A DNA stretch of 64,000 nt from Gammaproteobacteria bacterium (lineage in GTDB: Bacteria; Pseudomonadota; Gammaproteobacteria; Eutrophobiales; Eutrophobiaceae), in contig CBDBDW010000002.1 of the NCBI GenBank assembly GCA_965204045.1, positions 3,139,730 to 3,203,729 of the forward strand. The letters run 5' to 3'. Numbering within the stretch: position 1 is the stretch's first letter; each line of letters starts with the position of its first letter. This document shows, piece by piece, positions 20,171 through 54,431 of the stretch. The notes under the pieces are model-generated. The model had not been told where the DNA came from and searched no databases. It saw nothing but the letters and a program-made list of their open reading frames with translations. The position numbers and the translations under genes are program-made.

Positions 20171-20253
20171 CCGATGTGTGGACTCCTCCCCCCTTATCAT
20201 GGTAGTTAAGGGGGGAGAAGCAATTTTGTTTAACCAACAACGAGGAGTCCACG

Positions 20254-30505: not shown

Positions 30506-30589
30506 CGTTTGAGTACTGGGGCTGGCGGGGTACAAAATTGGAGTATCATAGGTGCAATATGAAAGTATAACTTGCAATTTACTCCTCGT

Positions 30590-30852: not shown

Positions 30853-30970
30853 TGTTGTTTTATTAAGGATAAATGTTGTGCGTGGTGTCTATTGCAACAT
30901 TTTTCCTAACATTATTTTGGGGCTGGATTCATGATGATTTTGTGTTTCTTTCATCTTCCAATTACATGGC
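30827..30970. repeat. Copy R1 of a about 125-145-bp conserved repeat family (about 95% identical to R2 over about 100 bp; tRNA-like 5' part degenerate)
   Basis: aatataacttgttgttttatt..aatgttgtgcgtggtgtctattgcaacatttttcctaacattattttggggctggattcatga shared with 44176-44300, 46165-46285, 47226-47372. Confidence 0.7.
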
Positions 30971-30998
30971 AATAACTTCCCACAGGTTTTAGTCCAGT

Positions 30999-31724
30999 TC
31001 ATCCAGGGGGTTCCTTGAGAGTGGGTGCCTGTAAAACCGGATCAAGCAGCGGGGACAATCCATGAACCAGTTCACGCTCAGTGGGCAACCCGTCAAAGAC
31101 CAGGTCGAAAAATGATTCATCACTGAAAATCAGGCTGGTCGACGCGCACTCCAGTTCATCAATGCGAAAACGCCACAGCTTGTTGAACTTTGCTTTTCCG
31201 TAAATCAAGACCTTCCCGTTCTTATACATGAGAGCGATATTGGACGTGCCGCCCAGTGTATCAAGCGTGATATCCAGCGCTTCCGAGAGTTCGCGGCCGT
31301 CGGCAATGAGTTTCTCCGTCATGCGAAAACCAACTTCCGAATCGACCCTGCCGGCGAGCTGGCCGTCGAATTGATCCCTGAAATCATCCGCCTTTTCAAA
31401 GTCGCCGTTATGGGCATAAGCAAAACCGAATTTGTCTGAATAAAACGGCTGCATGTCCTCGACGATGTTCGGCAGTCTTAACGGGCGACGCAGGTGGAAC
31501 ACCCACCGGCGTGATTCCAGTTCCCGAAGTGAGTCCAGGCCGTCGGGATCCTCAGCCAGCTTACCGACATGGCGCCGGACATCCAGGCGGCCGTCGTCAG
31601 TCAACCGTGCAACTCCCCAGCCCCACCCGGCAATCCCGTACTTCTCCTGGGTAAGCACCCATTGCTCCAGCCGTGTAAATGGAACCGGCTTTTCAGCGCC
31701 TGCAACCAGAATCTCGCACATATC
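30999..31724 (-). CDS. Class-II (Ntn) glutamine amidotransferase-like protein; start MCEILVAG with Cys2 nucleophile
   Basis: MCEILV N-terminus typical of class-II GATase/YafJ family. Confidence 0.7.
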   Translation of the reverse strand, partial: DMCEILVAGAEKPVPFTRLEQWVLTQEKYGIAGWGWGVARLTDDGRLDVRRHVGKLAEDPDGLDSLRELESRRWVFHLRRPLRLPNIVEDMQPFYSDKFGFAYAHNGDFEKADDFRDQFDGQLAGRVDSEVGFRMTEKLIADGRELSEALDITLDTLGGTSNIALMYKNGKVLIYGKAKFNKLWRFRIDELECASTSLIFSDESFFDLVFDGLPTERELVHGLSPLLDPVLQAPTLKEPPG

Positions 31725-39311: not shown

Positions 39312-41318
39312 TCACAGCAAGCCGATTGCCTGTCGCGCAGCGCGCTGCCCCTCCGCCATTCCTCCCACGAAGGCTTGCAGGCCGCGCAGTTCGGCATGCG
39401 CGAAAAAGATCCGCCCATAACCCTCGCGCAACGTATCAGTTGCCGAACGGCTGTTATCCGCCGGATAGAAAAAACCGGGTTTTGGAACTGAATAGGCATG
39501 ACCCCATCGGTTAACGGTGATGGCCGCTATGTCGCGTTGTGGTTCGAATCCTCCTTTATCAAATAACACATGCATCTGTTTGATAACACGGTGCTCAATA
39601 TCCATATATGGCGTTGCCAGCAATTGTTGTCGCAATTCAAGGCCCTGTTGCCTGGCCGGCAAGGAACTGTCGATCAATGGCGCGTAAAATGTCAGGACTA
39701 TGGGTTTATCCGGGTGAAAGGGCGCCTTGTAGTCACCTACAACAAGCGGTTGCCGGATATTACAATAAAAACCGAATTTTCCGCCAAAGTACAGAACTGA
39801 CGTCAAGCCCATACGCTCCATAAAACGCCAGTTGGTTAACGCTACATTCACTACGACTACCGGTGAATGATCGAATTTATCCAATGCCGTTGCCACTGCG
39901 GGCGGCGCGTCGCCCAGAATATGCCTGCTGACCCAGGCGCCGGCGCAAACTATAGCCGTTTTCGAAATGACCTGGTGTAATTCGCCGTTTTTCTCATACA
40001 CGATCCGCACCCTGCTGCCGTTACTGCCCTTCAGGTGCCGCACGTCTATTACAGTGGCCGCCAGGTGCATACGCATATTGTTGTCTCGATTTTCCAATTC
40101 ATCAAAACGTATTTTGCCTCCCATCATGGAAGCAGGCTTGTTCTCGCCTTCAAACAGGCCAGGCCAGACATAATTCATCAGGTACCTGTATACATAGGTG
40201 TTCCCGCCGGGGAAACAACCCACATTGAAATCACGCATGAACGTGGTCAGGTGTTTGGCAGATACCGACGCCTTGTATTCACCCGACTCCGGGGTCTCGG
40301 CCGCCCCTGGCATCATCAGCAATTTCGTCGCCACATAGGCCGAACAGGTGGCAGACCCAAAACCGAGAGCGCTGGCGAGCAGAGGATCGCAAAAACGGGC
40401 AACGGCAGGTGACAGCCCATGGACATCCACCAGCAATTCTTCGTAAGACATCCGGTCCAGCCACCGATCCATGTCTTCCCTGTCATGGTTAAAGGAAAGA
40501 CTCCAGTTATAACGGAGAAAATCGTTCCGGGTTTTTTTATCATAGCCGAGCCCCTGCATCCCGTTCATAAAAGGGTTTCTGACAGGCTCGGGTTGGGGAT
40601 TATCATCCGTCGGGGCCGGGAAATAACCGATACTGTCAGAAACGGTCGCCCACAACGTAAATGCGTAATTCGTAACATCGAACTCCAGCGGTTTATCGGT
40701 CCCTTCCAGTTCAACCCAATCATAGGAAAGCGGCATTCCGATATCGTTAAACTCATCGAACATGAGGTCGTCACCGATTGCCGTCTGCCCCGAATAACGG
40801 GGCAGGATGACCAGATTTGAACCCTGTGGTCCGAAAACCCGGCGCCCATTTACGTTAAATTCGTTGTGTTTTGCCTCGCCGCCGAAAATCCTGTGATTCT
40901 CAAGGATCAGCATCCTTGTTTCTGGTGCGTCTTTCTTTATGCGATATGCCGCCCCCATGCTGGTCGCGCCGCCACCAATAATGACGACGTCATAATCATC
41001 ATCGGATGTATGGGCGTTATTGAACGCAGATTCGTCAAACTGGTTTTCCGCAATTGCGTGGGCACGGGCTACAACATCCCAGGTGTTACCATTTTTTCCC
41101 TGATAATCGCCGATACCACTGGGGCCGTCATAGGTTAAATTCACCGGAGCGGCGGCAGAATATTGAGCTGCCCTGGCCTGTAATAATTGTACCGGCGTTA
41201 ACCCACCCAGTAACGCTGTTCCGGCGCCAAGCAGACTCCCTCCAAGAAAATCACGACGCGTAATCTGCATACAAGGCAGATGGTTCTGTTGAATTACTGA
41301 TTGTCGTTTTCTGTTCAC
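39312..41318 (-). CDS. TAT-secreted FAD-dependent amine oxidoreductase (spermidine-dehydrogenase SpdH-like)
   Basis: Twin-arginine signal MQITRRDFLGGSLLGAGTALL; DVVIIGGGATSMGAAYR FAD motif. Confidence 0.75.
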   Translation of the reverse strand: MNRKRQSVIQQNHLPCMQITRRDFLGGSLLGAGTALLGGLTPVQLLQARAAQYSAAAPVNLTYDGPSGIGDYQGKNGNTWDVVARAHAIAENQFDESAFNNAHTSDDDYDVVIIGGGATSMGAAYRIKKDAPETRMLILENHRIFGGEAKHNEFNVNGRRVFGPQGSNLVILPRYSGQTAIGDDLMFDEFNDIGMPLSYDWVELEGTDKPLEFDVTNYAFTLWATVSDSIGYFPAPTDDNPQPEPVRNPFMNGMQGLGYDKKTRNDFLRYNWSLSFNHDREDMDRWLDRMSYEELLVDVHGLSPAVARFCDPLLASALGFGSATCSAYVATKLLMMPGAAETPESGEYKASVSAKHLTTFMRDFNVGCFPGGNTYVYRYLMNYVWPGLFEGENKPASMMGGKIRFDELENRDNNMRMHLAATVIDVRHLKGSNGSRVRIVYEKNGELHQVISKTAIVCAGAWVSRHILGDAPPAVATALDKFDHSPVVVVNVALTNWRFMERMGLTSVLYFGGKFGFYCNIRQPLVVGDYKAPFHPDKPIVLTFYAPLIDSSLPARQQGLELRQQLLATPYMDIEHRVIKQMHVLFDKGGFEPQRDIAAITVNRWGHAYSVPKPGFFYPADNSRSATDTLREGYGRIFFAHAELRGLQAFVGGMAEGQRAARQAIGLL

Positions 41319-41628
41319 GGTGTTCTCTTCAACGGGCGAATACTACTTATCATCATTAAAATATCACTGTCAGAAAATACAAAATTCATACAATTTGCCG
41401 AGTCGCAACAGGCATGAAACCAGCGCAAGGACATCGCGGATTTCGTTACCCGGAAGAGTTGGCAGTATCTGCTGGGAATGACATGGAAAATATTTTGTAC
41501 CATTTTTGTACTTTTCGGATTCTTCAGGTGATTTATTTTTTTATATCGTAAAGCAGTAACAATCCCAGGGGCAGACAAGGTGTGATTATTTGTACTGCAC
41601 ACTGGAATTTCCATACGGGGATGGTGAT

Positions 41629-44103
41629 ATGAAGAACTTAACCTTGACCAGGCAACTAGGTGTATTGATCTCTGTTTTCAGCATTTCTGCTGTGCCTGTG
41701 AATGCTCAAATACTTGAAGAAATTGTTGTAACCGCTGAAAAACGGGAAGAAAAACTATCTGACGTCAGTATTTCTGTTACCGCGTTTACAGGAGAGCAGT
41801 TAAAACGGCTTGGTTACAAAACTACGCGGGAGCTGAACGGGCAGATTCCAAACCTGACAATTACCGATTTCGGAGGCGTACCCCAGACTGTGCTGGTAAC
41901 CATCCGCGGATTGACACAGGACGATTTTCTCAACCACCAGGAGTCGCCGAATTCAGTCTTTTACGATAACGCCTATAACAGTTTTCTCGGCGGTATCGGA
42001 AACCAGTTATTTGATATTGACCGCGTAGAAGTTTTACGCGGACCGCAAGGGACCCTGTTCGGAAGAAATGCAACGGGGGGACTCATCCACATTCTCACCG
42101 CAAAGCCTACGGATGAGTTCGAAGGTTATGGTGAAATAACCGCAGGTTCATATGAGATGGTCCGGTTTGAAGGAGCAATCAGCGGGCCGCTATCCGACGA
42201 ACTTTCCGGGCGGCTTTCAATTGCAACGGAGCATAACGGCGGATTTGTAGAAAACCGGGCCGACACATTGAGTGACGGTACAGTGGCCAGCGATGGCAAG
42301 GATGGCGGTAATATGGAGAACTACAGCCTGCGGTCCAGACTCTTATGGTCTCCCGGAGACGACACCGAGGTATTGATAACAGGAAGGTACTCCAGGGACG
42401 ATGACGTCAGGGCTGCAGTATATGACATTGATGCCGCCCTCAATCTTGGCGCATTCGATCCATCCATTGGCGGACCTAATGTAAATCTTCCGAATGTCGG
42501 TTCATATCCACTCAGCCAATCCGATTTCAATTCATACTGTTTAAATGTCTTCGCTGTTTCCGCTGCCGACAGTGAGGATAATTGTACCGGCAATGATGAT
42601 GACGATGATTTTGCCGGTTCTTTCAGTGACAGTTTTTTCAATCGGGAGAGTTACGGAATTACACTTGATATCAATCACTCAACGGGGGATATACAGATAA
42701 CATCCATTACTGATTTCAAGACTATTGAGCAGGATTACCGGGAGGACAGTGATGGGGTCTCCCGTACCGGGCCGGCGCTGGAAGCTGCCAGGCAGGCCTC
42801 GATTGACGGCACTCTCTTCGGTGTTCCAACCCTGCCCCCGGGGGCACCGATAGAAACTGTCATAGTGGCGGATTTTATCGGATCTGCAGATACGGATCAG
42901 TTCTCACAGGAGTTGCGTATTTCAGGTGAAAACGCTTCCCTGCAATGGCAAACAGGCGCTTATTTGCTGTACATCGATGGTGACTACACAAGCGGCTACG
43001 CTTCATTGGAAACATTCGGCGCAGCGAACGAAAATTTCTATAGTCTCGAAACGCTGAGTTATGCATTTTTTGTCGAAGCACAGTATTTTCTGACGCAGGA
43101 GGTAACTTTTATCGGAGGTGTTCGCTGGACCAGGGACGAAAAGGAATTCTCATTTATCGGTACGTGCACGAATAATACGACCGGCACTTACACATTTGAT
43201 TTTTTTGGATTGGCAGACCCCTGCGTGGATTTCGGTTTTGTCGTACCTGGAGCAGGTTTCATTCAGGACATCGGTTTCACAAAGGAAACCGCAGGTGATC
43301 TGACTGAATTGAATGACGATGCATTTTCATTTAAAGCGCAAATTGAATGGCAGCCGAATGATGACTTGTTGTTTTATGGGGGTGTGACCCGCGCAAATAA
43401 AGCTGGAAATTTCAACGCGGGTATCGCAAACAATATCGTTCCGGCCGTAGTCCCGTTTCAGCAGGAGATTCTTACTTCCTATGAGGCCGGTGTTAAAACG
43501 ACCTTGCTGAACGGAACCGTCAGGTTAAGTGCTGCAGGATTTTACTACGATTATGAAGATTACCAGGCAGCAACCTTCACGCCCGATTTTGTAAACCTGA
43601 TTTCGAATGTTGAGGCGGATGTAGTCGGTGGGGAGGTGGAAATATACGCCCAACCATTTGAAAACACGACTTTTGTGTTCGGCGCCTCATACCTCGATGC
43701 AGAAGCGGACGGTGTGCCAATTCCATTCGGTTCGGGTGAACTGGTTCCTCTCAAACAGGATATGCCGCAAGCGCCGAAATGGTCCGCAAACGGCCTGCTA
43801 CGTCAGGATTGGCCGACGACCTTCGGCAACCTGTTCACACAGATAGACTTCAACTACATAGACGAAAGGGCTACAAGTACTGCAAATTCGCCAATTGCAA
43901 CCCTTGAAAGTTATGTGTTAGCCAATCTTCGCGTAGGTATGAGCACAGCTGATGATAAATGGACTGCTACATTTTTTATTAACAACCTGACTGATACCAC
44001 CGCGATACAGAAGGCGTTTGATCTTTCATTATTTGGAGGATATCGACAACTGGTTAATGGTACGCCTCGTTGGTATGGAGGCACAATCAGGTATCAATTC
44101 TGA
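41629..44103 (+). CDS. TonB-dependent outer membrane receptor; start MKNLTL
   Basis: Plug motifs EEIVVTAEKREEKLSDVSISVTAF, VEVLRGPQGTLFGRNATGGLI; C-terminal ...RYQF. Confidence 0.85.
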   Translation: MKNLTLTRQLGVLISVFSISAVPVNAQILEEIVVTAEKREEKLSDVSISVTAFTGEQLKRLGYKTTRELNGQIPNLTITDFGGVPQTVLVTIRGLTQDDFLNHQESPNSVFYDNAYNSFLGGIGNQLFDIDRVEVLRGPQGTLFGRNATGGLIHILTAKPTDEFEGYGEITAGSYEMVRFEGAISGPLSDELSGRLSIATEHNGGFVENRADTLSDGTVASDGKDGGNMENYSLRSRLLWSPGDDTEVLITGRYSRDDDVRAAVYDIDAALNLGAFDPSIGGPNVNLPNVGSYPLSQSDFNSYCLNVFAVSAADSEDNCTGNDDDDDFAGSFSDSFFNRESYGITLDINHSTGDIQITSITDFKTIEQDYREDSDGVSRTGPALEAARQASIDGTLFGVPTLPPGAPIETVIVADFIGSADTDQFSQELRISGENASLQWQTGAYLLYIDGDYTSGYASLETFGAANENFYSLETLSYAFFVEAQYFLTQEVTFIGGVRWTRDEKEFSFIGTCTNNTTGTYTFDFFGLADPCVDFGFVVPGAGFIQDIGFTKETAGDLTELNDDAFSFKAQIEWQPNDDLLFYGGVTRANKAGNFNAGIANNIVPAVVPFQQEILTSYEAGVKTTLLNGTVRLSAAGFYYDYEDYQAATFTPDFVNLISNVEADVVGGEVEIYAQPFENTTFVFGASYLDAEADGVPIPFGSGELVPLKQDMPQAPKWSANGLLRQDWPTTFGNLFTQIDFNYIDERATSTANSPIATLESYVLANLRVGMSTADDKWTATFFINNLTDTTAIQKAFDLSLFGGYRQLVNGTPRWYGGTIRYQF

Positions 44104-44175
44104 CAATAGCATTCTGGTCAGGCAATAAAAGTAACGTAACGATTGACCTCCGTCACTACGTTACGAACAGCGCTG

Positions 44176-44300
44176 GAAAGAATGCCGATGGCCGGATTCG
44201 AAAGAATAATATAACTTGTTGTTTTTATTGTATAATAATGTTGTGCGTGGTGTCTATTGCAACATTTTTCCTAACATTATTTTGGGGCTGTATTCATGAC
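44176..44300. repeat. Repeat copy R2; carries tRNA-Leu 3'-end-like segment (minus-strand reading TTCGAATCCGGCCATCGGCATTC)
   Basis: gaatgccgatggccggattcgaa + conserved aatataacttgttg...ttttggggctgtattcatga. Confidence 0.7.
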
Positions 44301-44320
44301 GGTCCCTGTTGGCGTTGGTT

Positions 44321-44893
44321 TCAGGTGTCGTCCGGGAGTGTCTGCGTCCAACTGTTGCGTACAGTATCAATGCTGATGAACATTCTTAATGGGCGCGTCG
44401 GCAGCGACTGAAACCCCATGGCAAGATAAAATGCCCGGCGTTTTTCTGTAATATCGGGACCACCGTCCTCAATCACGTCGAGCACCACGGCCTTCAGTCC
44501 GATTTGATCGGCAGCGCCCACCGCGCGCTTTAATGCGTTTCCGAGCAGGATACTTCCTATGCCTTGCCCCTGGTGGCGACGGTCTACGGCGATCATTGAG
44601 AGGTAGGCTGTCGGGATACTTCCGGACCGGGGAGCGTGTTTCGTCAGGCTGGGCGGGAGACCCTCTCCTTCCAGCGAGTGCGCGTTCAGCGCGTAATAAC
44701 CCAGAATTTCATCTCGCCCGCCCTCAGTAGCAACCCAGACCCGTGTAAAGTCCCCCGACTGCTGTTTCCTGGCGCTACGTTTGAGAAAGTTGTCGAGCCG
44801 GACGGTCCCGCATGAGAAAGACGCCCTGTCGTGTTTCTCCGGGTCAAGCGGTGTGATGGATATCCGCCGTGGGTTCAACCCGGCTTCAGTCAC
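44321..44893 (-). CDS. GNAT-family acetyltransferase toxin (TacT-like); probable GTG start overlapping antitoxin stop
   Basis: ...ITPLDPEKHDRASFSCGTVRLDNFLKRSA..., acetyl-CoA motif RRHQGQGIGSILL. Confidence 0.7.
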   Translation of the reverse strand: MTEAGLNPRRISITPLDPEKHDRASFSCGTVRLDNFLKRSARKQQSGDFTRVWVATEGGRDEILGYYALNAHSLEGEGLPPSLTKHAPRSGSIPTAYLSMIAVDRRHQGQGIGSILLGNALKRAVGAADQIGLKAVVLDVIEDGGPDITEKRRAFYLAMGFQSLPTRPLRMFISIDTVRNSWTQTLPDDT

Positions 44894-45197
44894 CCTGCGC
44901 CACTCGGGCGTCGTGCATAGCCATAACTTTCCGCAGTGCGTCGGTCGGCGGCGCCGGCGTTTCCAGGGCAGCCAGAACCACCTCACGGTCTGCGGCAGAC
45001 AGGATCGTACGTTCATGGTCTGCAATCGTTGCCTGTGCCCGCTCAAGCGCCACGCTTGTCACGAAAGTTGTCTCATCGATACCGAGCAGGGCCGCCGCTC
45101 GCTGTATCTGCGCCTTGACGTGCGGTTTGGTTCGTTGTTCCATCCGCGCCGTTTTCGGTTCATCAATAGCGGCCGCATAATCGTCGAAATTCAGCAT
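44886..45197 (-). CDS. DUF1778-family (TacA-like, RHH) antitoxin
   Basis: 103 aa; ...KAQIQRAAALLGIDETTFVTSVALERA... Confidence 0.75.
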   Translation of the reverse strand: MLNFDDYAAAIDEPKTARMEQRTKPHVKAQIQRAAALLGIDETTFVTSVALERAQATIADHERTILSAADREVVLAALETPAPPTDALRKVMAMHDARVAQGD

Positions 45198-45301
45198 GGT
45201 CGTATCTCCATTATTTTTTGTTATTGTACGGTAATTTGCCGGACAATCAACTAATTCCTAAACGGCTAGTGGTTCAGGTTACGGGGAGAGGGTCAAGGGG
45301 G

Positions 45302-45805
45302 TCAACGTGCCTGAAGAAGTGTTTCGATACGTTGAACGGGAAGCATCAGGGTCATAGGGTCAATATGCGACACCCGGAACCCGTATCTCAGGTAAAAACG
45401 CCTGGCATCTTCTGAAATGGCGTGTACCAGCACCGCCCGGACGCCTGCATTCCGTGCAACAGCCAGTGTGCGTAACAAGGCATCTTTCAGCAGGGCAGCG
45501 CCCAGGCCTTGACCCTGCGTTGCACGTTCAACGGCCAAACGACCCAATACCATGACGGGAACGGCTTCCGGCATATTGCGGGCTATCGCCGCAGGAGCGC
45601 TGATTCGCTCGACACTCCCGCTGGCAAGAGCATAGAACCCGACTACCCGCTTACCCTCGCTGATAACAAAAGTTCTGCTGGCGCCACTGTCCTGATTTTT
45701 CAGCGCATGCTTTTTAAGCCACTCATTGAGCGCTTCATTACCACAGTCAAACTCCACCAGCAGATGACTGTCAGTCAGAGGCTCCGGGGCTTTGGCTACT
45801 CCCAT
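45302..45805 (-). CDS. GNAT-family acetyltransferase toxin (TacT-like), second paralog
   Basis: LLVEFDCGNEALNEWLKKHA N-terminus, QGQGLGAALL acetyl-CoA motif. Confidence 0.8.
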   Translation of the reverse strand: MGVAKAPEPLTDSHLLVEFDCGNEALNEWLKKHALKNQDSGASRTFVISEGKRVVGFYALASGSVERISAPAAIARNMPEAVPVMVLGRLAVERATQGQGLGAALLKDALLRTLAVARNAGVRAVLVHAISEDARRFYLRYGFRVSHIDPMTLMLPVQRIETLLQAR

Positions 45806-46059
45806 GGAGAAGGAGAAGTCAACAGGGATTTCAGCTTCTCGTTAGCAGGCGCCGGCGCTTCCAGGGCTGCGGTAAAGGCAGCAAAAGTATCATCGTCAAG
45901 TTGAAAAAGACGTTGATTGAGCAACACGTGTTCCGCTTCCCGACAGGCAACGTCCAGGATAAAAGCGCTTCTGTCCTTGTTAAGCATCGCAGCAGCTTTG
46001 GTCAACAGCGCACGCTGACCAGGTTCAACGCGCATGTTAATAGGGGCAGTTTTGGACAT
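45796..46059 (-). CDS. DUF1778-family antitoxin, second paralog; start at MSKTAPINMRVEPG
   Basis: INMRVEPGQRALLTKAAAMLNKDRSAFILDVA. Confidence 0.75.
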   Translation of the reverse strand: MSKTAPINMRVEPGQRALLTKAAAMLNKDRSAFILDVACREAEHVLLNQRLFQLDDDTFAAFTAALEAPAPANEKLKSLLTSPSPWE

Positions 46060-46164
46060 AATGATAAATCTCTTTGAATATCTTGATGCGATACATTCTA
46101 GTATAGCTATCAGATACACGCAAATGTTCCGCTCTCAGCAGAGAAATTGGAACTGCAAAAACGG

Positions 46165-46285
46165 ATAAATGGTGCCGATGGCCGGAATAGAAACTGTAAT
46201 GTAACTCGTTGTTTTTATTAAAATATAATGTAGGGCATGTTGTCTATTCCAACATTTTTTCCAACATTATTTTGTGTCCCCAAAA
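46165..46285. repeat. Repeat copy R3 (minus-strand reading ...TTCCGGCCATCGGCACCA; distal end partly inverted relative to other copies)
   Basis: ggtgccgatggccggaataga + taactcgttgtttttatt..atgttgtctattccaacattttttccaacattattttgtgtcccc. Confidence 0.65.
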
Positions 46286-46311
46286 CTATGCAATTACAGG
46301 GCCGCGGGTCA

Positions 46312-47137
46312 CTATGAAATACTTAAGTCGAAGCCGGCTGAGATTGTGTACCATGTACCTTTCCCTTTCCCGTGTTTCGTTAAATGACCATTTTTTACTA
46401 AAGAAGCAATGTGCTCTTTAATCGTCCCCCGGGCGGCACTGGTTGACTTTATGATGTCATCCATTTTGATTTGACCCCGCTCACGTGCAAGTTCCACATA
46501 ATCTACCGTTACCATCCTGAAACGGGTGGATTTGTAACAAGACAACGATAAATACCGCAATAATCAACAGGGGATGAAAAGACCGTTCTTGTAGCGCTTT
46601 ATTCGTCCACTCCTCCAACTCAGTCATCAAACGTGGTGTATCAAAAGGTGATGCCGTAGCAAAAACAACCCCGAGGCTTTTCCCGCTTTCATCAAAAGCC
46701 TCAACATGATTATCAATTTTTTTGTAGTGTCCACGATGTCTTTCGTCTTTTCCTGAATATTGAAGTAAATCACGATGCAGTTGTTTGATGTGATTTTCTG
46801 TCAGTGTGATTGCCGACCACGATGAGAAAATTGTCTCCATGACTTCTGCGTAGCCTGCCACTTCTTCTTCATCGCGTGATTGGAAGGACTTGTTCGGTAG
46901 TTCAATTAACAAGGCTTGAACCTGATTATCCGATAATTGACTTCCTTCTATCCTGGTTGAGGAACCAATGCTTTCGATTGTTGCCACACGACGTAAGGCG
47001 GATAGCCGCTCGGGGGTAAGGGTTGCCAACGCATGCCACGCCCCTTTGAACTCATCCAGTTCTGCAATAATATCGAGTATTTCCGGGGTGATATGAAGGG
47101 TATGTGTTTTAATTGTTTCAGCCATAAATCCAACCAT
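46312..47137 (-). pseudogene. fic: Decayed fic (Fido-domain) gene: Fic domain ORF ends 5 codons after the HPFQDGNGR motif and the C-terminal wHTH continues in another frame
   Basis: HPFQDGNGRLCGTCT* in one frame; overlapping ORF MRYLSLSCYK...LARERGQIKMDDIIKSTSAARGTIKEHIASLVKNGHL (wHTH); about 80 aa missing between motif and wHTH. Confidence 0.65.
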
Positions 47138-47225
47138 ATCCGGCCATAAATATCAAACAAATAATCATAAACGGTTTTCGGCCATAAATCCAGCCAAATT
47201 CAGCCATAAAAAACCGTTAAAGCCA

Positions 47226-47372
47226 GGAAATGGTGCCGATGGCCGGATTCGAATAAGTAATATAACTTGTTATTTTATCCGGGGAAAATGTTGTGAGTGG
47301 TGTCCATTACAACACTTTTCCTAACATTGTTTTGGGGCTGGTTTCATGATGATTTTGTTGTTTTTTCATCTT
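47226..47372. repeat. Repeat copy R4 (minus-strand reading ...TTCGAATCCGGCCATCGGCACCA)
   Basis: ggtgccgatggccggattcgaataagtaatataacttgtt...ttttggggctggtttcatgatgattttgttg. Confidence 0.7.
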
Positions 47373-47579
47373 TCAGCAACAGGGCAATGACGTCCTGCAG
47401 TTTTTTATCCTGGTCCTTCAGGGTTTTTTCAGAAAAAAAGAACCCTTAAAACCTGGCAAGTACCTGTTCACCTACATACAACAGGGGATTGAAACGGATA
47501 CAACCCGGGGAGACTTCCCATAATCGGTCGTCATGTTATAATCAACATTTAGAATTTAATTTCGTATATAAGAAATATT

Positions 47580-48320
47580 ATGGCTTCAGTTCGAACCGCG
47601 GACAGGACGCTGAGATTGTTCGAAGCGTTTAAGGTTGAAGGTCAGCCTTTGAGCCTGTCGGAACTGGCGGGGTTCATGAACGTGCCGATGTCCAGTTGTC
47701 ATGGCCTGGTGAATACACTAATCGAGCGTGGCTATCTTTACCACATTTCAAGAAGAAAGCTTTTATATCCGACAGGAAAAATACTGGAAGTTGCCGAAAC
47801 AATAGTAAGTAAAGATCCTCTGTTAGACAGGATCAGGCTGCCGTTATCAGCCCTTCGGGACAAATTAAAAGAGACGATCATTATCGGAATAAGAGAACAG
47901 GAGCGGGTGATGTATATTGACGTAATAGAAGGAACACATACCGTACGATACACGGCCTATCCAGGTGAATTCAAACCCTTGCATTCAAGTGCCGTTGGTA
48001 AGGCAATCCTTGCGAGCATGACGGAAAATGAGCTTGAAAAACTACTTCGCAGATTACCCCTGGAAAAAATTACGCCGATGTCAATCACTGATAAGAAACA
48101 ATTACTACAAGACTTAGATCAAGGCCGAAAGCGGGGCTATTACGAAACCCATGGGGAAAATGTGGTGGACGTGGATGCAGTGGCTGTTCCTGTGGTATCG
48201 AACAAAGACATTATCGGCATATCAGTCGCTGCTCCAAGCCACAGGATGGAAGAAGGCAGGATAGATATTGCACAGGAACTGCTCAAAACCAGGCAAACGA
48301 TTTTAGAAGAATTGAGATGA
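47580..48320 (+). CDS. IclR-family transcriptional regulator
   Basis: N-terminal HTH SLSELAGFMNVPMSSCHGLVNTL, C-terminal effector domain. Confidence 0.85.
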   Translation: MASVRTADRTLRLFEAFKVEGQPLSLSELAGFMNVPMSSCHGLVNTLIERGYLYHISRRKLLYPTGKILEVAETIVSKDPLLDRIRLPLSALRDKLKETIIIGIREQERVMYIDVIEGTHTVRYTAYPGEFKPLHSSAVGKAILASMTENELEKLLRRLPLEKITPMSITDKKQLLQDLDQGRKRGYYETHGENVVDVDAVAVPVVSNKDIIGISVAAPSHRMEEGRIDIAQELLKTRQTILEELR

Positions 48321-49090
48321 GTTCTACCGGCAGTGACCTCTCTGTTGATATCAGGGAAAAAGTTTTGCATGTAAAGATTAATCGCCCCGAAAAGCGTAAT
48401 GCACTGAGCCGCACAACCCTGAAAGAAATCGGTAATGTTTTCAATCATCACAAGTCAGACGATTCCATACTGGTTGCGGTACTGACGGGAGCAGGTGACA
48501 GGAGCTTTGCTGCAGGCGGTGATCTGAAAGACCTGGACTCCGTCCGCACGCGGGAGCTTACTGTTGACATGGTAAATACAGGTAAAACAGCACTGGATGC
48601 AATCCGTAATTTCTGTGTGCCTGTTGTCGCGGCAATAAATGGTACGGCCTTGGGTGGCGGCGCCGAGCTGGCCATGGCCTGTGATTACCGGGTTGCGGAC
48701 GAGACTGCAAAAATAGGCTTCGTGCAGGGAAAACTCAATATCACCACGGCCTGGGGAGGAGGCGCCGATTTAATGGAGCGCATCGGGTCCGCTCCGGCAA
48801 TGAAACTGCTTGCTGGTTGCAGAATTCTCGACGCAAAGGCTGCGCTGGAACTAGGTGTAATCGACGCCTGTTGTTACAGCAACCAATCTCTTGATGATTG
48901 CGTGAAAGATTTTGTCTCACCTTTTCTGGAGCGCAGCACAACTGTCATGCGCGGGTTTAAATCGCTGAGAAATCATGCGCGCAATTACTTTGTACAGTCA
49001 TTAAATGAACTTGAAACAAACAACTTCATTGAAAGCTGGTTACATGATGAGCACTGGCAGGTAGCAGGCAATATATTGAAAAAAAGTTGA
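48317..49090 (+). CDS. Enoyl-CoA hydratase/isomerase (crotonase) family protein
   Basis: INRPEKRNAL, AAINGTALGGGAELAMACD oxyanion-hole motifs. Confidence 0.85.
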   Translation: MSSTGSDLSVDIREKVLHVKINRPEKRNALSRTTLKEIGNVFNHHKSDDSILVAVLTGAGDRSFAAGGDLKDLDSVRTRELTVDMVNTGKTALDAIRNFCVPVVAAINGTALGGGAELAMACDYRVADETAKIGFVQGKLNITTAWGGGADLMERIGSAPAMKLLAGCRILDAKAALELGVIDACCYSNQSLDDCVKDFVSPFLERSTTVMRGFKSLRNHARNYFVQSLNELETNNFIESWLHDEHWQVAGNILKKS

Positions 49091-49113
49091 TGTAAATCAG
49101 CATACGAGTCGAG

Positions 49114-50727
49114 ATGAACAGTTCAAAAATATTATCACCCGATCCGGAGCAAAACCTGAATACCATAACGGGAGAAGAAACGCCGGTTCTGGTGACGGAT
49201 GACATGATAGACAGCAGGAAAATAGGGACGCCAGGCGAATATCCCTATACAAGAGGTATTTTTAACAATGGCTACCGCGGGCGTTTATGGACATTCCGGC
49301 AATATTCCGGATTCGGCACCGCGGAAGAAACCAATGAACGATACAGATTTTTACTGGACAGAGGTTCGACCGGCCTCTCAGTGGCGCTGGATTTGCCGAC
49401 ACAATGCGGTTATGACCCGGATGATGTCATGGCCACCGGTGAAATAGGAAAAGTCGGGGTCTCACTGTCCAATCTGGCTGAAGCGGAACTATTATTCGAC
49501 GGCATCGATCTGAGTAAGATATCCACATCTTTTACCATAAACGGTACAGCAGCTATCATCTATGCCATGTATCTCGCGGTCGCTGATAAGAACAACACGC
49601 CGCGCAGTGTCCTGACCGGGACCATACAGAATGACATACTGAAAGAATATGCCGCGCGCGGCACATGGATCTTTCCGGTGCGGCCTTCCATGCGTCTCAT
49701 CGCTGATTCGATACTGTATTCAAATGAACAAACACCCAGGTTCAACCCCATAAGTATCGCAGGCGCTCATGTACGGGATGCAGGCGTGAATGAAGTCGAA
49801 GAGTTGGGATATACGCTGGCTAACGGCCTGACTTATGTTGATGAACTGGTCAAGCGCGGCGCCGATCCGAACAAATTTGCCAGAAGGTTGAGTTTCTTCT
49901 TTTATGTGCATATGGGGTTTTTTGAGGAGATTGCCAAGTTTCGTGCAGGAAGAAGGTTATGGGCGAGATTGCTCAGGGAGCGTTACGGCATCACGGACCC
50001 GAAGGCGCTGATGTTCCGGTTCGGCGTTGTCTGTGGCGGGTCCTCCCTCACCGCATCACAGCCTTATAACAATATCGCCCGGGTTGCTCTTGAAAATATG
50101 GCTGCCGTCCTGGGAGGCGTGCAATCGGTGTTTACCTGCGCCTATGACGAAGCCTTTCAGATTCCGACGGAATTCAGCGCCGAAACAGCTTTGAGAACTC
50201 AGCAGATAGTTGCGTATGAAACCGGAGTCACCAAATCGGTTGATCCTCTCGGCGGCAGTTATTACGTGGAGTGGCTGACAGACCGCATGGAAGAGCAGGC
50301 GGGAAACATCATCAGGGAACTGGAGGAGTATGGCGGTGTGGAGAAAGCAATCGAAGATGGATTCATTCAATCCAGAATTGCTGAGAGCGCGCGCAACCGC
50401 AAGATCCGGAAAGACAGTGGAGAAGACGTGGTCGTAGGCGAGAATTATTACCGCAACGAAAATGAAGTAAATGATTTCGGTGAAATTTTTCAACTGGATA
50501 GCCAGGCTACCGAAAAAATCATGACCAGGCTGGATTCCGTAAGAGACCAACGTGACAATAACGAAGTGCGCAGGACATTACGGAAACTCGAAGGTTGCGC
50601 GGCAACTGAAGGAAAAAACCTGATGCCGTATATCGTTGATTGCTGTCATGCATATGCCACAGTCGGAGAAATAGTATCGAGCCTCAAGAAGCAATGGGGT
50701 GAATTCAGGGAGCCCATACGGCTTTAA
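49114..50727 (+). CDS. Acyl-CoA mutase large (substrate-binding) subunit, methylmalonyl-CoA-mutase family, without fused B12 domain
   Basis: YPYTRGIFNNGYRGRLWTFRQYSGFGTAEETNERYRFLLDRGSTGLSVALDLPT. Confidence 0.85.
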   Translation: MNSSKILSPDPEQNLNTITGEETPVLVTDDMIDSRKIGTPGEYPYTRGIFNNGYRGRLWTFRQYSGFGTAEETNERYRFLLDRGSTGLSVALDLPTQCGYDPDDVMATGEIGKVGVSLSNLAEAELLFDGIDLSKISTSFTINGTAAIIYAMYLAVADKNNTPRSVLTGTIQNDILKEYAARGTWIFPVRPSMRLIADSILYSNEQTPRFNPISIAGAHVRDAGVNEVEELGYTLANGLTYVDELVKRGADPNKFARRLSFFFYVHMGFFEEIAKFRAGRRLWARLLRERYGITDPKALMFRFGVVCGGSSLTASQPYNNIARVALENMAAVLGGVQSVFTCAYDEAFQIPTEFSAETALRTQQIVAYETGVTKSVDPLGGSYYVEWLTDRMEEQAGNIIRELEEYGGVEKAIEDGFIQSRIAESARNRKIRKDSGEDVVVGENYYRNENEVNDFGEIFQLDSQATEKIMTRLDSVRDQRDNNEVRRTLRKLEGCAATEGKNLMPYIVDCCHAYATVGEIVSSLKKQWGEFREPIRL

Positions 50728-50751
50728 TTCAGCGGATATTCGGGAGAGATA

Positions 50752-51148
50752 TATGTCGATCAGGGGAAAAAGAATACTGGTGGGTAAACCCGGGTTGGAT
50801 GGCCATGATGTCGGCGCAAAGGTGATTGCGCTGACATTACGCGATGCAGGGGCCGATGTCATCTATACAGGTCTGCGAAAAACACCGGAATACATTGCCA
50901 GAGCGGCCGTAGATGAAGATGTGGACGTGGTAGGGTTGAGTATTTTAAGCGGCAGCCACAAGGAACTCGTAAAGGCAATAAGGGCAAATCTCGACGAATT
51001 AAGCGCCGCGGATATTCCGATTTTTGTCGGCGGAACCATTCCTGCTCATGATTACGACGAACTGAAAGAATACGGGGTGGTCGCTATTTTTACTGCGGAA
51101 ATGCCCCTCGATGAAATCGTTGCAAAAATCGATACGTTATTGGCATGA
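50752..51148 (+). CDS. Cobalamin-binding small subunit of the split acyl-CoA mutase
   Basis: KRILVGKPGLDGHDVGAKV (DxHxxG B12-binding motif); GGGAGAG RBS. Confidence 0.85.
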
Positions 51149-52278
51149 AAGATTCAACAAGCGGAACAGGACCTCTTGCAGGGTTACGAATTATTGAGAT
51201 TGGTCATATGTTGGCGGGCCCCTATTGCGGGTTGTTATTAGCTGATTTAGGCGCGGAAATAATTAAAGTAGAAACGAATAAAGGTGATATATCCCGAGCG
51301 ATAGGCCCAAATTACATTGGTGAACACAATATTTATTTTGCCAGTCTGAACCGTAATAAAAAAAGCGTGGAACTGGATATTGCAACAGACGATGGAAGAC
51401 ATAAATTCAATCATCTGGTAAGCACGGCAAACGCATTAATCTGTAATCTCCGGCCCGGAGCGATCAGGAAACTGGGCCTGACGTATAATGCATTAAAGGC
51501 AATCAATCCGAAGCTGACGTGTGTTGCCTTGACCGGATTCGGGCTCGAGGGACCTTATAGTGACATGCCCGCCTACGATTATGTTATCCAGGCATTATCC
51601 GGCATTACCATGTTGACCGGAAACCCGGGGAATCCGCCCACGCGTGTCGGCTATTCTGTTGTGGATAACACCGCAGGCATGATGGGTGCAATCGGTGTCT
51701 TGGCAAAACTGGTAGAAGGCAAGGGAGGCCAGGTGGATATAGCGTTATACGACACCCTCATCTCACAGTTTAATTACATTGCCAGCGCCTGGTTGAATGC
51801 AGGAGAAAAACCCAGACGGCAAGTTGACGGCGGACATGCTTATATTGTACCGGCCCAGTTTTTCGAAACGTCAGATGGCCATGTCGCATTGTTTATAACT
51901 CATGACAGGTTTTGGCGCGATTTTTCACAGGAGGTTGGTATGCCGGAATGGATTGAAGATCCGGACTTTGCCACGATGGAAACCCGATCAAAAAATCGTA
52001 ATATTGTCGTGAACTCTGTAAAAAAGATTATGATGACTGATACAACCTCGAACTGGCTCAATCGGTTGCAGCCTCTAGGCATAGTTATAGCGGGTGTGCG
52101 CGGCATGGAAGAGGCGCTCGTCGATAAGCATGTTTCACACAGGGACATGGTAATTCAAATTCCAACTCCCGATGGTTACATTAATCTAGTTGGCAATCCG
52201 GTAAAAATATCCGGATTTCAAACACAATACCACGCGCCTCCCGGATTAGGTGAACACAACAGCATCATATTAAGTTGA
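51145..52278 (+). CDS. Family-III CoA-transferase (CaiB/BaiF type)
   Basis: GPLAGLRIIEIGHMLAGPYCGLLLADLGAEIIKVE N-terminus. Confidence 0.85.
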   Translation: MKDSTSGTGPLAGLRIIEIGHMLAGPYCGLLLADLGAEIIKVETNKGDISRAIGPNYIGEHNIYFASLNRNKKSVELDIATDDGRHKFNHLVSTANALICNLRPGAIRKLGLTYNALKAINPKLTCVALTGFGLEGPYSDMPAYDYVIQALSGITMLTGNPGNPPTRVGYSVVDNTAGMMGAIGVLAKLVEGKGGQVDIALYDTLISQFNYIASAWLNAGEKPRRQVDGGHAYIVPAQFFETSDGHVALFITHDRFWRDFSQEVGMPEWIEDPDFATMETRSKNRNIVVNSVKKIMMTDTTSNWLNRLQPLGIVIAGVRGMEEALVDKHVSHRDMVIQIPTPDGYINLVGNPVKISGFQTQYHAPPGLGEHNSIILS

Positions 52279-52284
52279 TATCCG

Positions 52285-53184
52285 ATGGCGCCACCTGATA
52301 AATCATATAAAAACCGGCTTGAACTGGCGCGTACCCTCAGTAAGATTGCCAACGCTGGTATCCATGACATTCTGGATAAGCCCCAGAAATCTACGCTGCT
52401 CGGGCGTTCCCAGAGGATAGGCATTACCGGCCCACCTGGTACCGGTAAAAGCACACTAATTGCCGGTTGGGCTGAATTCCGGCTGAAAATGGGTAAGACC
52501 ATTGGAGTGCTTGCGATTGATCCTAGCAGCCCAGCAACGCAGGGGGCGATTCTCGGAGATCGTATTCGAATGGAAAGCGTTATCGATAATGAGCGCTTCT
52601 ACCTTCGATCCATTCCAGACACGTTAAACGGCAATGGATTATGTCACAATATTGTTAATCTTCTTGACGTATTCGAGCAGTACAATTTTGACGACGTTGT
52701 GCTGGAAACGGTAGGGATAGGCCAGTCCGAACATCATATCCGTTGCTTGGTAGATACGGTGGTATTGGTATTAAATCCGCAATCAGGCGATATAATCCAG
52801 ACAATGAAGGCAGGCATAATGGAAATAGCCGATGTTTTCGTTATCAACAAGACAGATTTGGGAGGAAGCGAATTACTGGAGCGGGATATAAGTGGCGTTC
52901 TGGACTTTACGATACACGAAAATTCCTGGCGCCCGAGGATTATTAAAATATCCTGCAAAGATGACACAGGAATTCAGGAACTGAATAAATCTATTGATGA
53001 TCACTATGAGTGGGTGAAGGAAAATGTAGCTCTGGATGAAATATATAACCAGCGCCAGGACTTCCAGTTAGCACAGTTGATTTCCGGCCAGGTATGTCAC
53101 TATTTAACTCAAAATGCCGAAGTATCCAAGAATTTACGGGAAAAATACGACAATGTTACCAGGTGGATTGTTGGGTTGAAATAA
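52285..53184 (+). CDS. meaB: MeaB/ArgK-family G-protein chaperone for B12-dependent mutases
   Basis: P-loop GITGPPGTGKST; about 300 aa; adjacent to mutase subunits. Confidence 0.8.
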   Translation: MAPPDKSYKNRLELARTLSKIANAGIHDILDKPQKSTLLGRSQRIGITGPPGTGKSTLIAGWAEFRLKMGKTIGVLAIDPSSPATQGAILGDRIRMESVIDNERFYLRSIPDTLNGNGLCHNIVNLLDVFEQYNFDDVVLETVGIGQSEHHIRCLVDTVVLVLNPQSGDIIQTMKAGIMEIADVFVINKTDLGGSELLERDISGVLDFTIHENSWRPRIIKISCKDDTGIQELNKSIDDHYEWVKENVALDEIYNQRQDFQLAQLISGQVCHYLTQNAEVSKNLREKYDNVTRWIVGLK

Positions 53185-53238
53185 TCAGAAGTTCCTGAAA
53201 ATACAATTATCAATGTCCTTGGCACCAGGAGAGTTACT

Positions 53239-53691
53239 ATGAAAAAAATACATTTTGTCCTTATGACGGCAATAGCTCTGAATTTAATCATAACCCCGGT
53301 AGTCAGTTCTCCTGTACCCGAATTATTAGGGGTATGGGAAGGTACGGCAAAAAGTATTTATACAGCCGCCGGACGAAATGTCAAAAATGTCGCAGATGAA
53401 GGTGTTGTGGTAGAGCAACTGACACTTTCAATGGAAATTGATTATCAGGACGGCGCTGTATTCAGAGGCATCATGTCTTCAAGGCTGGGGGAGCATCTGC
53501 TGATTGGCTCGATTCGAAGTGATGGTAAAACAGGATATGTCACTGTTGCGGGTGGTGAAAGCGGCAGTATTGATATTCGTGCTACTCTTAGCGTCTTGAC
53601 AGAGAACGAACTGGAAGTATGTTATACCCAGGGTGAGGAAAACAATGTCATGGCAGTTGCATGTTCAATACTCACCCGGGTGTCGGAGTAG
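53239..53691 (+). CDS. Small secreted hypothetical protein
   Basis: Signal peptide MKKIHFVLMTAIALNLIITPVVSS; no motif recognised. Confidence 0.55.
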   Translation: MKKIHFVLMTAIALNLIITPVVSSPVPELLGVWEGTAKSIYTAAGRNVKNVADEGVVVEQLTLSMEIDYQDGAVFRGIMSSRLGEHLLIGSIRSDGKTGYVTVAGGESGSIDIRATLSVLTENELEVCYTQGEENNVMAVACSILTRVSE

Positions 53692-53729
53692 TTCAGTTTG
53701 CGGAATTCTTGAATTAGATGTAAAAGACC

Positions 53730-54431
53730 TTATGATTTCGTAGGTCCATCATTTTGAAGCAGGTAGTGACACCCCAGATAGGCATCGATCACCTCCTTGG
53801 GTGGCATGTCGAAGTCTCCATATTCGACGTAGGCTAGATATAAGTAGCTGCGTGCAGCCATCATCGTATAGGCCGCGACTTCGAGCTCAGTGTCCGTATA
53901 ATCCTTCAGCGTGCCATCCCGTATACTCCGCTTCATCGAAGCTACGTAGCGAGCGATGAGATCCTGAAAGTGTTTTCGATGTCCGGCGGGTGCTGCGAAT
54001 TGGGCTTCATTCAGAACGCGATGATAGCCCGGATTGTCACGCATATACTCAAAAAAGGCGATGACGGCACGCTCCTCCACCTCGCGGAAGCTCTTCGCCC
54101 CCCGGAGCGCTCCTCCGATATACTTCATGGCTTTCTGCCCGGCATATGGCAGCAATTCGTCGAGCAGATGTTGTCGCGTCTCAAAATAAAGATAGATGGT
54201 TCCCTGAGCAACATCAGCTTCGATGGCAATCCGGCCAACCGAAGCGTTCTGGTAACCACGTTCGCGGACAATCTTTTCGGCAGCATTCAGAATGCGCTCG
54301 CGCACCTGGTTCGCGCGTTCAGCACGGGTTGGCTTCCTGCGCTTTTCCGCTCGAGGCGTTGCCGCCGCCTTTTTCTTGCCAGGTGCAATCGCCTTTGGGG
54401 TTTCAAGAGCTACTTTGTTTGCTGTGCTCAT
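53730..54431 (-). CDS. TetR/AcrR-family transcriptional regulator with Lys/Ala-rich N-terminal tail
   Basis: HTH region ILNAAEKIVRERGYQNASVGRIAIEADVAQGTIYLYF. Confidence 0.8.
   Translation of the reverse strand: MSTANKVALETPKAIAPGKKKAAATPRAEKRRKPTRAERANQVRERILNAAEKIVRERGYQNASVGRIAIEADVAQGTIYLYFETRQHLLDELLPYAGQKAMKYIGGALRGAKSFREVEERAVIAFFEYMRDNPGYHRVLNEAQFAAPAGHRKHFQDLIARYVASMKRSIRDGTLKDYTDTELEVAAYTMMAARSYLYLAYVEYGDFDMPPKEVIDAYLGCHYLLQNDGPTKS

Follow-up and report, generated by a model that had tools for sequence, protein, structure and literature searches.

Toxin–antitoxin and Fic cassettes bounded by probable tRNA-Leu(GAG)-derived attachment sites in an uncultivated gammaproteobacterium

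A 64,000-nucleotide stretch of the genome of a Gammaproteobacteria bacterium (assembly GCA_965204045.1, contig CBDBDW010000002.1, positions 3,139,730 to 3,203,729; hereafter, the window) contains an array of direct repeats of about 125 bp that bound toxin–antitoxin (TA) genes and a decayed fic gene. We consider it probable that these repeats are attachment (att) sites of small integrative elements targeting the 3′ end of tRNA-Leu(GAG), and that the units between them are accreted, integrase-less cassettes akin to cis-mobilisable elements (CIMEs). These cassettes are still being lost, gained, reordered and moved among at least three loci in near-identical strains, most probably through recombination at a 12-bp core by an integrase encoded elsewhere, together with homologous recombination between repeats.

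This reading draws directly on the anatomy of the att sites, their match to a tRNA, a classical attL/attR polarity at that tRNA, polymorphism between strains and the absence of a linked integrase. Of the two options offered in an initial annotation of this DNA—accreted integrase-less cis-mobilisable elements or an uncharacterised cassette platform—the former is the better fit. Like CIMEs, which are flanked by att sites and have no integration or transfer genes, each cassette lies between two att copies and carries only TA or Fic genes.

Repeat anatomy and the match to tRNA-Leu(GAG)

A repeat search of the window returned a single direct-repeat family with three members (44183–44284, 46173–46274 and 47233–47334), which a profile built from 26 distinct copies extended to the full sites R2, R3 and R4 (each with E about 1e-38; Table 1). 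The same profile detected a truncated fourth copy, presumably the R1 implied by the numbering of the initial annotation, and no others in 64 kb. All att copies within an array lie on the same strand. Allowing up to three mismatches, the 23-mer that closes the repeat matched three times in the window (0.00 expected from 100 shuffles), while a 25-mer from the arm matched four times (0.00 in shuffles); the three same-orientation repeats of the initial annotation were thus borne out by repeat search, profile and shuffle controls alike.

Read in the direction of the genes, on the minus strand, an att site comprises a conserved arm of about 95 nt, a T-loop-like heptamer, the 12-mer core CCGGCCATCGGC and a short flank. 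The arm holds conserved ATGTTG-type motifs (two direct and one inverted) and is followed by the 20-bp block TTCGAATCCGGCCATCGGCA, which is identical to the tRNA from T-loop to discriminator; the repeats lack the 5′ half of the T-stem and the 5′ strand of the acceptor. Conservation, measured as the mean frequency of the commonest base across the 26 distinct copies, was 0.99 in the 12-bp core, 0.95 in the arm motif block, 0.93 in the AAGTTATATTA block, 0.80 in the rest of the arm and 0.71 in the post-core flank. Although each repeat had been described as ending in the 23-mer, this is exactly true only of R4 (TTCGAATCCGGCCATCGGCACCA): the terminus of R3, TTCTATTCCGGCCATCGGCACCA, has two mismatches, and that of R2 reads TTCGAATCCGGCCATCGGCATTC, with GGCATTC in place of GGCACCA, its post-core sequence ATTCTTTCCAGC being a B′-like variant without CCA.

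ARAGORN called no tRNA gene in the 64-kb window and Rfam gave no match, either at gathering score over all of the window or with E relaxed to at most 5 over 44000–47600, in agreement with the earlier observation that no complete tRNA is present. A structured-RNA reading of the repeat was dropped for want of a covariance-model match. Promoter and terminator consensus sequences were no more frequent in the repeat than in shuffles and none recurred from copy to copy, so those roles were dropped.

The 20-mer TTCGAATCCGGCCATCGGCA matched 100 times in JGI metagenomes, with 79 matches inside tRNA genes called by ARAGORN, every one of them tRNA-Leu: 46 with anticodon UAA and no encoded CCA, 28 with GAG and an encoded CCA, three with CAG and two with CAA and CCA. 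About half of the other matches were partial 3′ pieces of tRNA-Leu(UAA), of the kind left by integrated elements, and one (L064; L-numbers denote related contigs or loci retrieved for comparison with the window) proved to be a member of the att-cassette family. A second contig from the metagenome of L064, L088, carries tpiA, secG and a tRNA-Leu(GAG) gene whose terminus is the exact 23-mer. The TpiA of L088 has a homologue on OZ244846.1, a chromosome complete at 4.35 Mb and 96–99.6% identical to the window.

On OZ244846.1, too, the 3′ end of the tRNA-Leu(GAG) gene that follows tpiA and secG (L133, 11216–11301) is the exact 23-mer, and cassette DNA comes directly after it: 53 nt of fic leader, a vapB cassette (92% identical to L025) and then an alcohol dehydrogenase gene. 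The match to the fic leader reaches 90.8% over 76 nt (L133 11279–11354 against window 47253–47178). The boundary repeats therefore match the 3′ end of a tRNA from the same organism by way of its closest complete relative, the window strain's own tRNA lying outside the window. The terminus had initially been assigned to a tRNA-Leu(UAA)-type gene; in this lineage, the matching tRNA is tRNA-Leu(GAG). E. coli leuX agrees with the 23-mer at 21 of 23 positions.

Comparison of tRNA-Leu loci separates element from chromosome. Conspecific strains differ immediately after the tRNA, which is followed by 73 nt of TA2 leader in L134 and L139, by a MoaF-like gene in L140 and L141 and by fic leader plus vapB in L133. 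In the relative L138 (TpiA 90% identical), there are no cassettes and the tRNA end reads GGCA followed by TTCATTTCCGGGTTGTTTGTGGCG, with CCA not encoded; this unoccupied junction is GGCA then TTCATTTCC. Occupied tRNAs read GGCA followed by CCATTT, and the TTC-type flank is found at the far end of arrays. Indeed, the native flank of L138 (GGCA, then TTCATTTCCGGGTTGTTTG) recurs 3′ of the core in the distal att of L013 (52 of 57 nt) and in L014, and R2 in the window is of the same ATTC-TTTCC type over about 12 nt. The CCATTT sequence is element-derived and the TTC sequence is the displaced native tRNA flank, which at the distal end follows element arm and core (arm, core and B′ forming attR): this is classical attL/attR polarity at tRNA-Leu(GAG). 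An intact tRNA at the proximal end of inserted DNA is absent from the window and from L011–L019; it was seen solely in relatives, at their separate tRNA-Leu locus (L133, L134, L137 and L139–L141). A shared block running from T-loop to discriminator is what is classically seen in islands whose integration site is the T-loop sublocation of a tRNA gene. Integration at this sublocation has also been described for ssrA islands (PMC3146451).

The repeat is rare. Searching one genome from each of 185,579 species with a degenerate arm 25-mer recovered nine loci in seven metagenome-assembled genomes (MAGs), all labelled Gammaproteobacteria bacterium, with one to three exact matches per genome, each beside the core and always at a cassette boundary. 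Their isolate names (Plut, RHO3_bin, APA_bin) suggest coral and sponge sources. The arm motif and the core plus CCATTT were absent from IMG/VR, and neither 72,556 plasmids nor 50,697 phages gave a blastn match to the repeat; with these searches empty, a phage or plasmid origin was dropped. The 20-mer matched only a phage tRNA-like gene in IMG/VR. On a 172.5-kb, jumbo-phage-like IMG/VR contig with 21 tRNA genes, L020 9352–9500 is a tRNA-like sequence (acceptor GCCGATG...CATCGGCACCA) with a long internal insertion, uncalled by ARAGORN.

Strain polymorphism and cassette content

At the window locus, which lies between the IclR and TonB-receptor genes, the array runs HicB remnant, fic, TA2–TA1. 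Twenty metagenome contigs encode the exact IclR protein, and the locus exists in several states. In the empty state (L002, L003 and L011), nothing but the HicB remnant and one att lies between the TonB-receptor and IclR genes, and this att has the left junction of R2 and the right side of R4; the right-hand junction of R2 is kept exactly in the empty-site allele of L002/L011. A fic-only state (L001) has an intact fic cassette between two sites, the left one consisting of the R3 arm joined at the core to the chromosomal flank. The combination of fic with TA2–TA1 is found at this locus in the window, L022 and L026.

Cassettes also change place. In OZ244846.1, the IclR/TonB locus is empty (L011), and fic and TA2 cassettes 97–99% identical to those of the window sit instead at the locus of the window's R1, followed by a VapBC cassette (L016/L021). 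The exact TacA2 protein occurs on 21 contigs in varied cassette contexts, ten of which show, at the second locus, VapBC–fic–TA2, VapBC–TA1′–fic–TA2 and VapBC–TA1′–TA2–TA1–DUF4143, and otherwise fic–TA2–TA1 with different upstream flanks or, on one contig, fic–TA2 at both loci. A unit made of HicB remnant and att heads arrays in several genomes. The modular presence and absence between strains that the initial annotation had called for is thus seen as empty alleles (L002/L003/L011), a fic-only allele (L001) and other orders and loci (L021–L030).

In L022 and L026, the upstream neighbours of the array are Peptidase_M20 and MFS genes in place of IclR, and arrays coincide with rearrangement breakpoints in the upstream flanks of these two contigs and in L131. 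A large number of short-read contigs end within an att copy or at tRNA-Leu (the starts of L003–L010 and the ends of L135, L136, L142 and L143). The att repeats evidently break short-read assemblies and hide variation in MAGs, in which they mark hotspots of strain-level variation and rearrangement.

The initial annotation had the repeats bounding two adjacent GNAT/DUF1778 TA pairs and a decayed fic gene. Pfam supports these gene assignments, and fic is indeed broken, by a 268-bp internal deletion at window position 46498 relative to intact alleles of 360–364 amino acids in L001 and L016/L021. No att site or repeat separates TA2 from TA1, however, so the two pairs form one fused cassette. R1 and R4 each have on their right a decayed HicB/UPF0150-like 3′ gene end of roughly 85 nt, and other genomes keep this gene intact; the remnant beside R4 is the leftover of the cassette that owns this site and is retained even in the empty alleles. 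The R3 arm, which belongs to the fic cassette, lies 3′ of fic in four different contexts.

Table 1. Features of the two arrays in the window (window positions; TA, toxin–antitoxin)
Feature	Position	Strand	Description	Basis
att R2	44165–44302	-	Distal (attR-type) array end; arm, TTCGAAT, core CCGGCCATCGGC at plus-strand 44184–44195, then ATTCTTTCCAGC	Profile, E 3e-38
att R3	46151–46290	-	Belongs to fic cassette; core 46174–46185; heptamer mutated to TTCTATT, then ACCA	Profile, E 1e-38
att R4	47212–47352	-	First array site in gene direction; core 47235–47246; exact 23-mer TTCGAATCCGGCCATCGGCACCA	Profile, E 2e-38
att R1	30814–30937	-	Second array locus; arm and heptamer kept, core replaced by DUF4143 gene sequence	Profile, E 3e-28
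TA1	44321–45197	-	GNAT toxin 44321–44866 and TacA/DUF1778 antitoxin 44886–45197	Pfam Acetyltransf_7 5e-10, TacA1 9e-18
TA1 leader	45198–45301	-	Relatives have about 50 nt of it (45244–45295) 5′ of their vapB (FitA-like) cassette	92% identity over 52 nt to L133, L026
TA2	45302–46059	-	GNAT toxin 45302–45805 and TacA antitoxin 45796–46059	Pfam
TA2 leader	46060–46173	-	Element-side (P′-type) flank ACCATTTATCCGTTTTTGCAGTTCC; about 73 nt of it directly 3′ of tRNA-Leu(GAG) in L134, L139	
fic pseudogene	46312–47137	-	Fic/DOC domain and C-terminal winged-helix piece	Pfam Fic 7e-17
fic leader	47138–47234	-	P′-type flank ACCATTTCCTGGCTTTAACGG; four GCCATAAAT-type motifs	
HicB/UPF0150-like antitoxin remnant	47345–47440	-	Decayed 3′ end	Alignment to intact genes in L012, L017, L018, L019; Pfam UPF0150 2.4e-5, below family cut-off
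HicB-like remnant beside R1	about 30938–31010			
DUF4143 AAA+ ATPase pseudogene fragments	30560–30835	+	Cassette gene; intact (393 aa) in L013, L017	PF13635 in L028/L030

The claim that the modules are markedly more AT-rich than their flanks did not hold: the GC content of TA1 (58.7%) and TA2 (54.4%) exceeds that of the TonB-receptor (47.9%) and IclR (45.6%) genes, and only fic (43.8%), the leaders and the repeats (33–40%) are low. On a wider scale, GC lies between 0.42 and 0.51 per kb across the 13-kb stretch 41000–54000 (0.54 over the TA pairs, 44–46 kb), against 0.57 in the left 30 kb of the window, and this low-GC stretch includes the conserved metabolic genes for TonB receptor, IclR and methylmalonyl-CoA mutase.

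Two leaders have features of their own. Between att core and fic start, the fic leader (47116–47210) holds its GCCATAAAT-type motifs as two 35-nt direct repeats 60 nt apart, which may be a candidate operator for the DNA-binding domain of the Fic protein; part of this motif region survives beside the tRNA in OZ244846.1. A sequence of about 50 nt, GACCCTCTCCCCGTAACCTGAACCACTAGCCGTTTAGGAATTAGTTGATTG, stands 5′ of both the TacA1 gene and an unrelated vapB (FitA-like) gene (window 45244–45295, L026 7667–7720 and L133 11376–11427). Beside the HicB cassette of L018 (1156–6275) are an N6_N4 DNA methylase fragment, a weak PD-(D/E)XK match, a 238-amino-acid protein of unassigned family and a 674-amino-acid AAA_23/SMC-like ATPase, a four-gene block that looks like a defence system.

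Elsewhere in the window, insertion sequences (IS) form a cluster at 11887–21324 with no link to the att repeats: an IS481-like rve gene (11887–13131), an IS5-like DDE_Tnp_1 gene (18852–19892) and an IS110-family element (20254–21324). An ISAzo13-family element (22989–24280, open reading frame 23020–24243) splits a CBM9-domain gene into two parts (24270–25157 and 21636–22856); this insertion is absent in L015, and L021 and L023 encode one protein of 715–742 amino acids.

Exchange points, recombinase and competing explanations

Beyond the core, every cassette opens with a flank specific to it (ACCATTTCCTGGCT for fic, ACCATTTATCCGTT for TA2 and ACCATCTCTGATCA for the DUF4143 gene). A given cassette follows different arms and a given arm precedes different cassettes, the join being CCGGCCATCGGC. 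Since cassettes keep their own flank and arm while their partners vary, the main exchange point is the core.

We envisage that a P4-type tyrosine integrase would have mediated serial integration into the tRNA and then into existing att sites, so building tandem arrays by accretion, and that the integrase and most other genes would have been lost later. The survivors would be cassettes of 1–2 kb, each with a self-stabilising TA or Fic gene and one attP-like site whose element-side flank begins CCATTT. Arrays would now occupy the tRNA and two secondary loci, the window array sitting at a secondary, non-tRNA locus that could have arisen either by integration at a pseudo-site or by rearrangement between arrays. 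We infer that the recombinase would be of this family, act in trans and be active at present.

As initially reported, the window has no integrase or intI gene: Pfam and NCBIfam searches of its 52 open reading frames of at least 120 amino acids identified no tyrosine or serine recombinase, the transposases seen being those of IS (IS481-like, IS5-like, IS110 and ISAzo13, at 11.9–24.2 kb). Neither the window nor the regions flanking related arrays gave a Phage_integrase-family match. A single fragment was found, on the 3.8-Mb chromosome of another species (L137), where 25 nt after the tRNA an open fragment, PMSDMTLGKALHATGYGQRATEHGFRSSFRDWAG, encodes 35 amino acids of a decayed protein with a catalytic region of HGFRSSFRDWA type; its tblastn matches (best E 6e-5) are phage genes that carry the annotation site-specific integrase or integrase arm-type DNA-binding domain protein. 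It is followed by a DUF433/DUF5615 pair, a full att (family arm, ATTC-type flank, E 2e-30), and then further PIN-type pairs and a fic remnant.

Several observations weigh against descent from such elements with continuing exchange at the core. An intact integrase was found neither within 10 kb of about 35 related loci nor at the tRNA-Leu locus of five further relatives; the L137 fragment, identified by tblastn, has no Pfam, NCBIfam or word-index protein match; and neither array in the window is adjacent to a tRNA. The arms are mosaic, one variant of the 3′ part of the arm accompanying fic behind three different upstream genes, which is best explained by a second exchange zone in the conserved ATGTTG block through homologous recombination or gene conversion. 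Heptamer mutations (TTCTATT, TTCTACT or TTCGACT) in several copies should cripple these if crossover takes place in the T-loop. Finally, in the more distant L131 (IclR 88% identical), the HicB remnant is fused to the fic leader with no att left and the array is fixed; its far side (7700–10000) leads to the dehydrogenase gene and block that flank the tRNA-Leu locus in other strains.

Some of these points also favour the strongest alternative, which we nevertheless judge unlikely: that the att copies are dead relics and that all present change proceeds by RecA-dependent recombination or gene conversion between the ~125-bp repeats, with allelic replacement through flanking homology. The mosaic arms and their second exchange zone, the tracts of 20–31 identical nucleotides at both exchange zones and the lack of an integrase near any array all speak for it, and fused or eroded sites are common (no att between TA2 and TA1, no core in R1, no att in L131). 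Arrays also lie at the breakpoints of larger rearrangements, in the flanks of L022 and L026 and in L131, where the IclR array is joined to the alcohol dehydrogenase flank of the tRNA locus. Relics alone, however, account neither for the same arm and tRNA end having been acquired by unrelated genes nor for an attL/attR polarity this clean at the tRNA. The arm offers about 100 nt of homology, yet most junctions lie at the 12-bp core, where the homology ends, and although these copies have no tRNA function to maintain, the core hardly varies among them (0.99). Moreover, the usual minimum for efficient RecA recombination is at or above the length of the identical tracts seen here.

Erosion of individual sites can be followed in two cases. 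In R1, the core is lost at a junction exactly at the heptamer/core boundary (window 30828–30840), abutting the DUF4143 pseudogene, and the fusion of VapBC with TA1′ is marked by a weak arm remnant in the profile search. The DUF4143 sequence at the R1 break, CGCTCGTCTTCGGCGCC, loosely resembles the core plus CCA, and a similar core-like string follows the tRNA in L137; the R1 break may represent recombination with a pseudo-site.

A more ambitious version of the att-site reading, in which one unlinked P4-type integrase runs a working exchange of promoter-carrying TA, Fic and defence cassettes among tRNA-Leu(GAG) and at least two non-tRNA platforms by double-stranded recombination, strikes us as conceivable rather than likely. 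Considerably less credible still is an integron-like system, in which the arrays would be dedicated capture sites and a single unlinked recombinase would insert and excise promoter-bearing cassettes through att by double-stranded recombination of tRNA type. The units of 0.9–2 kb are all co-oriented with one att at the 3′ side of the gene, TA genes dominate as they do in chromosomal integrons, the same cassettes recur in different orders at three loci and a HicB-remnant-plus-att unit heads arrays in several genomes. Yet none of the arrays has a linked recombinase, the unit at their head is a gene in decay rather than a conserved platform, att has no attC-like fold, decay is widespread, and ordinary island integration fully accounts for the polarity at the tRNA.

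Two further readings are effectively refuted. A miniature inverted-repeat transposable element (MITE), or other non-autonomous transposable repeat, inserted between the genes of a TA island might be short, AT-rich, non-coding and present in several copies in a window with IS elements, but the repeat ends have no inverted partner and there are no target duplications, orientation is uniform, one end is the exact 3′ end of a host tRNA and the plasmid and phage collections are without a match; with four copies in the window and nine loci among the species genomes, all at cassette boundaries, it is not the widespread MITE that the initial annotation had kept in view. Likewise, a cluster of attC sites lacking an integron integrase (CALIN) would fit co-oriented cassettes with TA content, ~125-bp separating repeats and no nearby integrase, but inspection of the sequence revealed no R″/L″–L′/R′ symmetry and no GTTRRRY/RYYYAAC pair at the ends, single-stranded folding of six strands produced only a short local stem (minimum free energy −8.7 to −16 kcal/mol; z −0.55 to −2.97 against shuffles), the exchange point is a tRNA-derived core rather than a GTTRRRY box, and the cassettes have their own leaders.

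A Xer/dif-like reading was dropped because similarity of the arm to dif arms, judged by eye only, is weak, as were IS110/IS200-type mechanisms, since an enzyme of that kind is not encoded by any cassette and paired hairpins are missing from the cassette ends.

On the att-site reading, islands at tRNA genes can shrink to one addiction or Fic gene plus one attachment site, and these minimal units keep being shuffled among strains, even to chromosomal places without a tRNA. If an unlinked recombinase does drive the exchange, it would amount to integron-like behaviour of independent origin, arising from the att site of a tRNA island, and would provide a route for the spread of TA and defence genes in uncultivated, probably sponge- or coral-associated Gammaproteobacteria.

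Comparison with known systems

A literature search found analogues of this att-cassette family but no description of it. Islands with P4-family integrases, such as those associated with leuX in E. coli, target the 3′ part of tRNA-Leu and restore the tRNA end with element sequence; such islands are of large size, and each has its intact integrase next to the tRNA. The arrays described here share with them the tRNA-Leu target and the identity block from T-loop to 3′ end, and the L137 fragment has a HGFRSSFRDWA-type region; the leuX-type islands, by contrast, are not arrays of minimal cassettes and are not known at non-tRNA loci.

CIMEs arise in the tandem accretion of integrative and conjugative elements and integrative mobilisable elements, as with ICESt1/ICESt3 in Streptococcus thermophilus, in which integrase and transfer genes have been lost and att sites kept (PMC5704250). 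In both systems, direct repeats of the 3′ end of a target gene mark the boundaries. The units here differ in being far smaller, 1–2 kb in size with one TA or Fic gene, each with an attP-like site of about 125 bp, and in forming arrays at two loci without the target gene; no functional partner element for mobilisation in cis was found.

The ssrA islands of Dehalococcoides stand in tandem in large numbers downstream of their target, each with a repeat of its 3′ end of about 20 bp and extra conserved bases beside the repeat; about half are without an integration module and have been proposed to be CIMEs, and the islands are a major source of differences between strains (PMC3146451). Their recombinase is the serine enzyme DsiB, their size is at least some 10 kb, and none is farther than 100 kb downstream of ssrA (PMC3146451). 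Tandem units, repeats of a tRNA or small-RNA 3′ end, insertion at the T-loop and integrase-less members are common to both systems, whereas a tyrosine-integrase trace, cassette-sized units and arrays away from the tRNA set ours apart.

In Prochlorococcus, islands built by tycheposons beside tRNA genes reflect successive integrations, with partial tRNA copies between them, and also hold degenerated elements and scattered partial tRNAs; subpopulations with and without an element coexist (bioRxiv 10.1101/2020.12.28.424599). Tycheposons have their own integrase and replication genes and carry nutrient-acquisition cargo (bioRxiv 10.1101/2020.12.28.424599). Accreted islands beside tRNAs, partial tRNA copies, degenerate elements and presence or absence of elements recur in our arrays, which differ in having no linked integrase, TA and Fic cargo and a long conserved arm in the repeat.

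Chromosomal integrons and CALINs (PMC11551772, for context) are alike in behaviour only, with small co-oriented cassettes that have one 3′ site each, include many TA genes and are reshuffled; our arrays have a tRNA-derived core and cassettes with their own upstream regions, with no folded attC and no IntI or attI found. Set against all of these systems, what is unusual here is miniaturisation to single genes with a long att arm, residence at non-tRNA loci and the lack of a linked recombinase.

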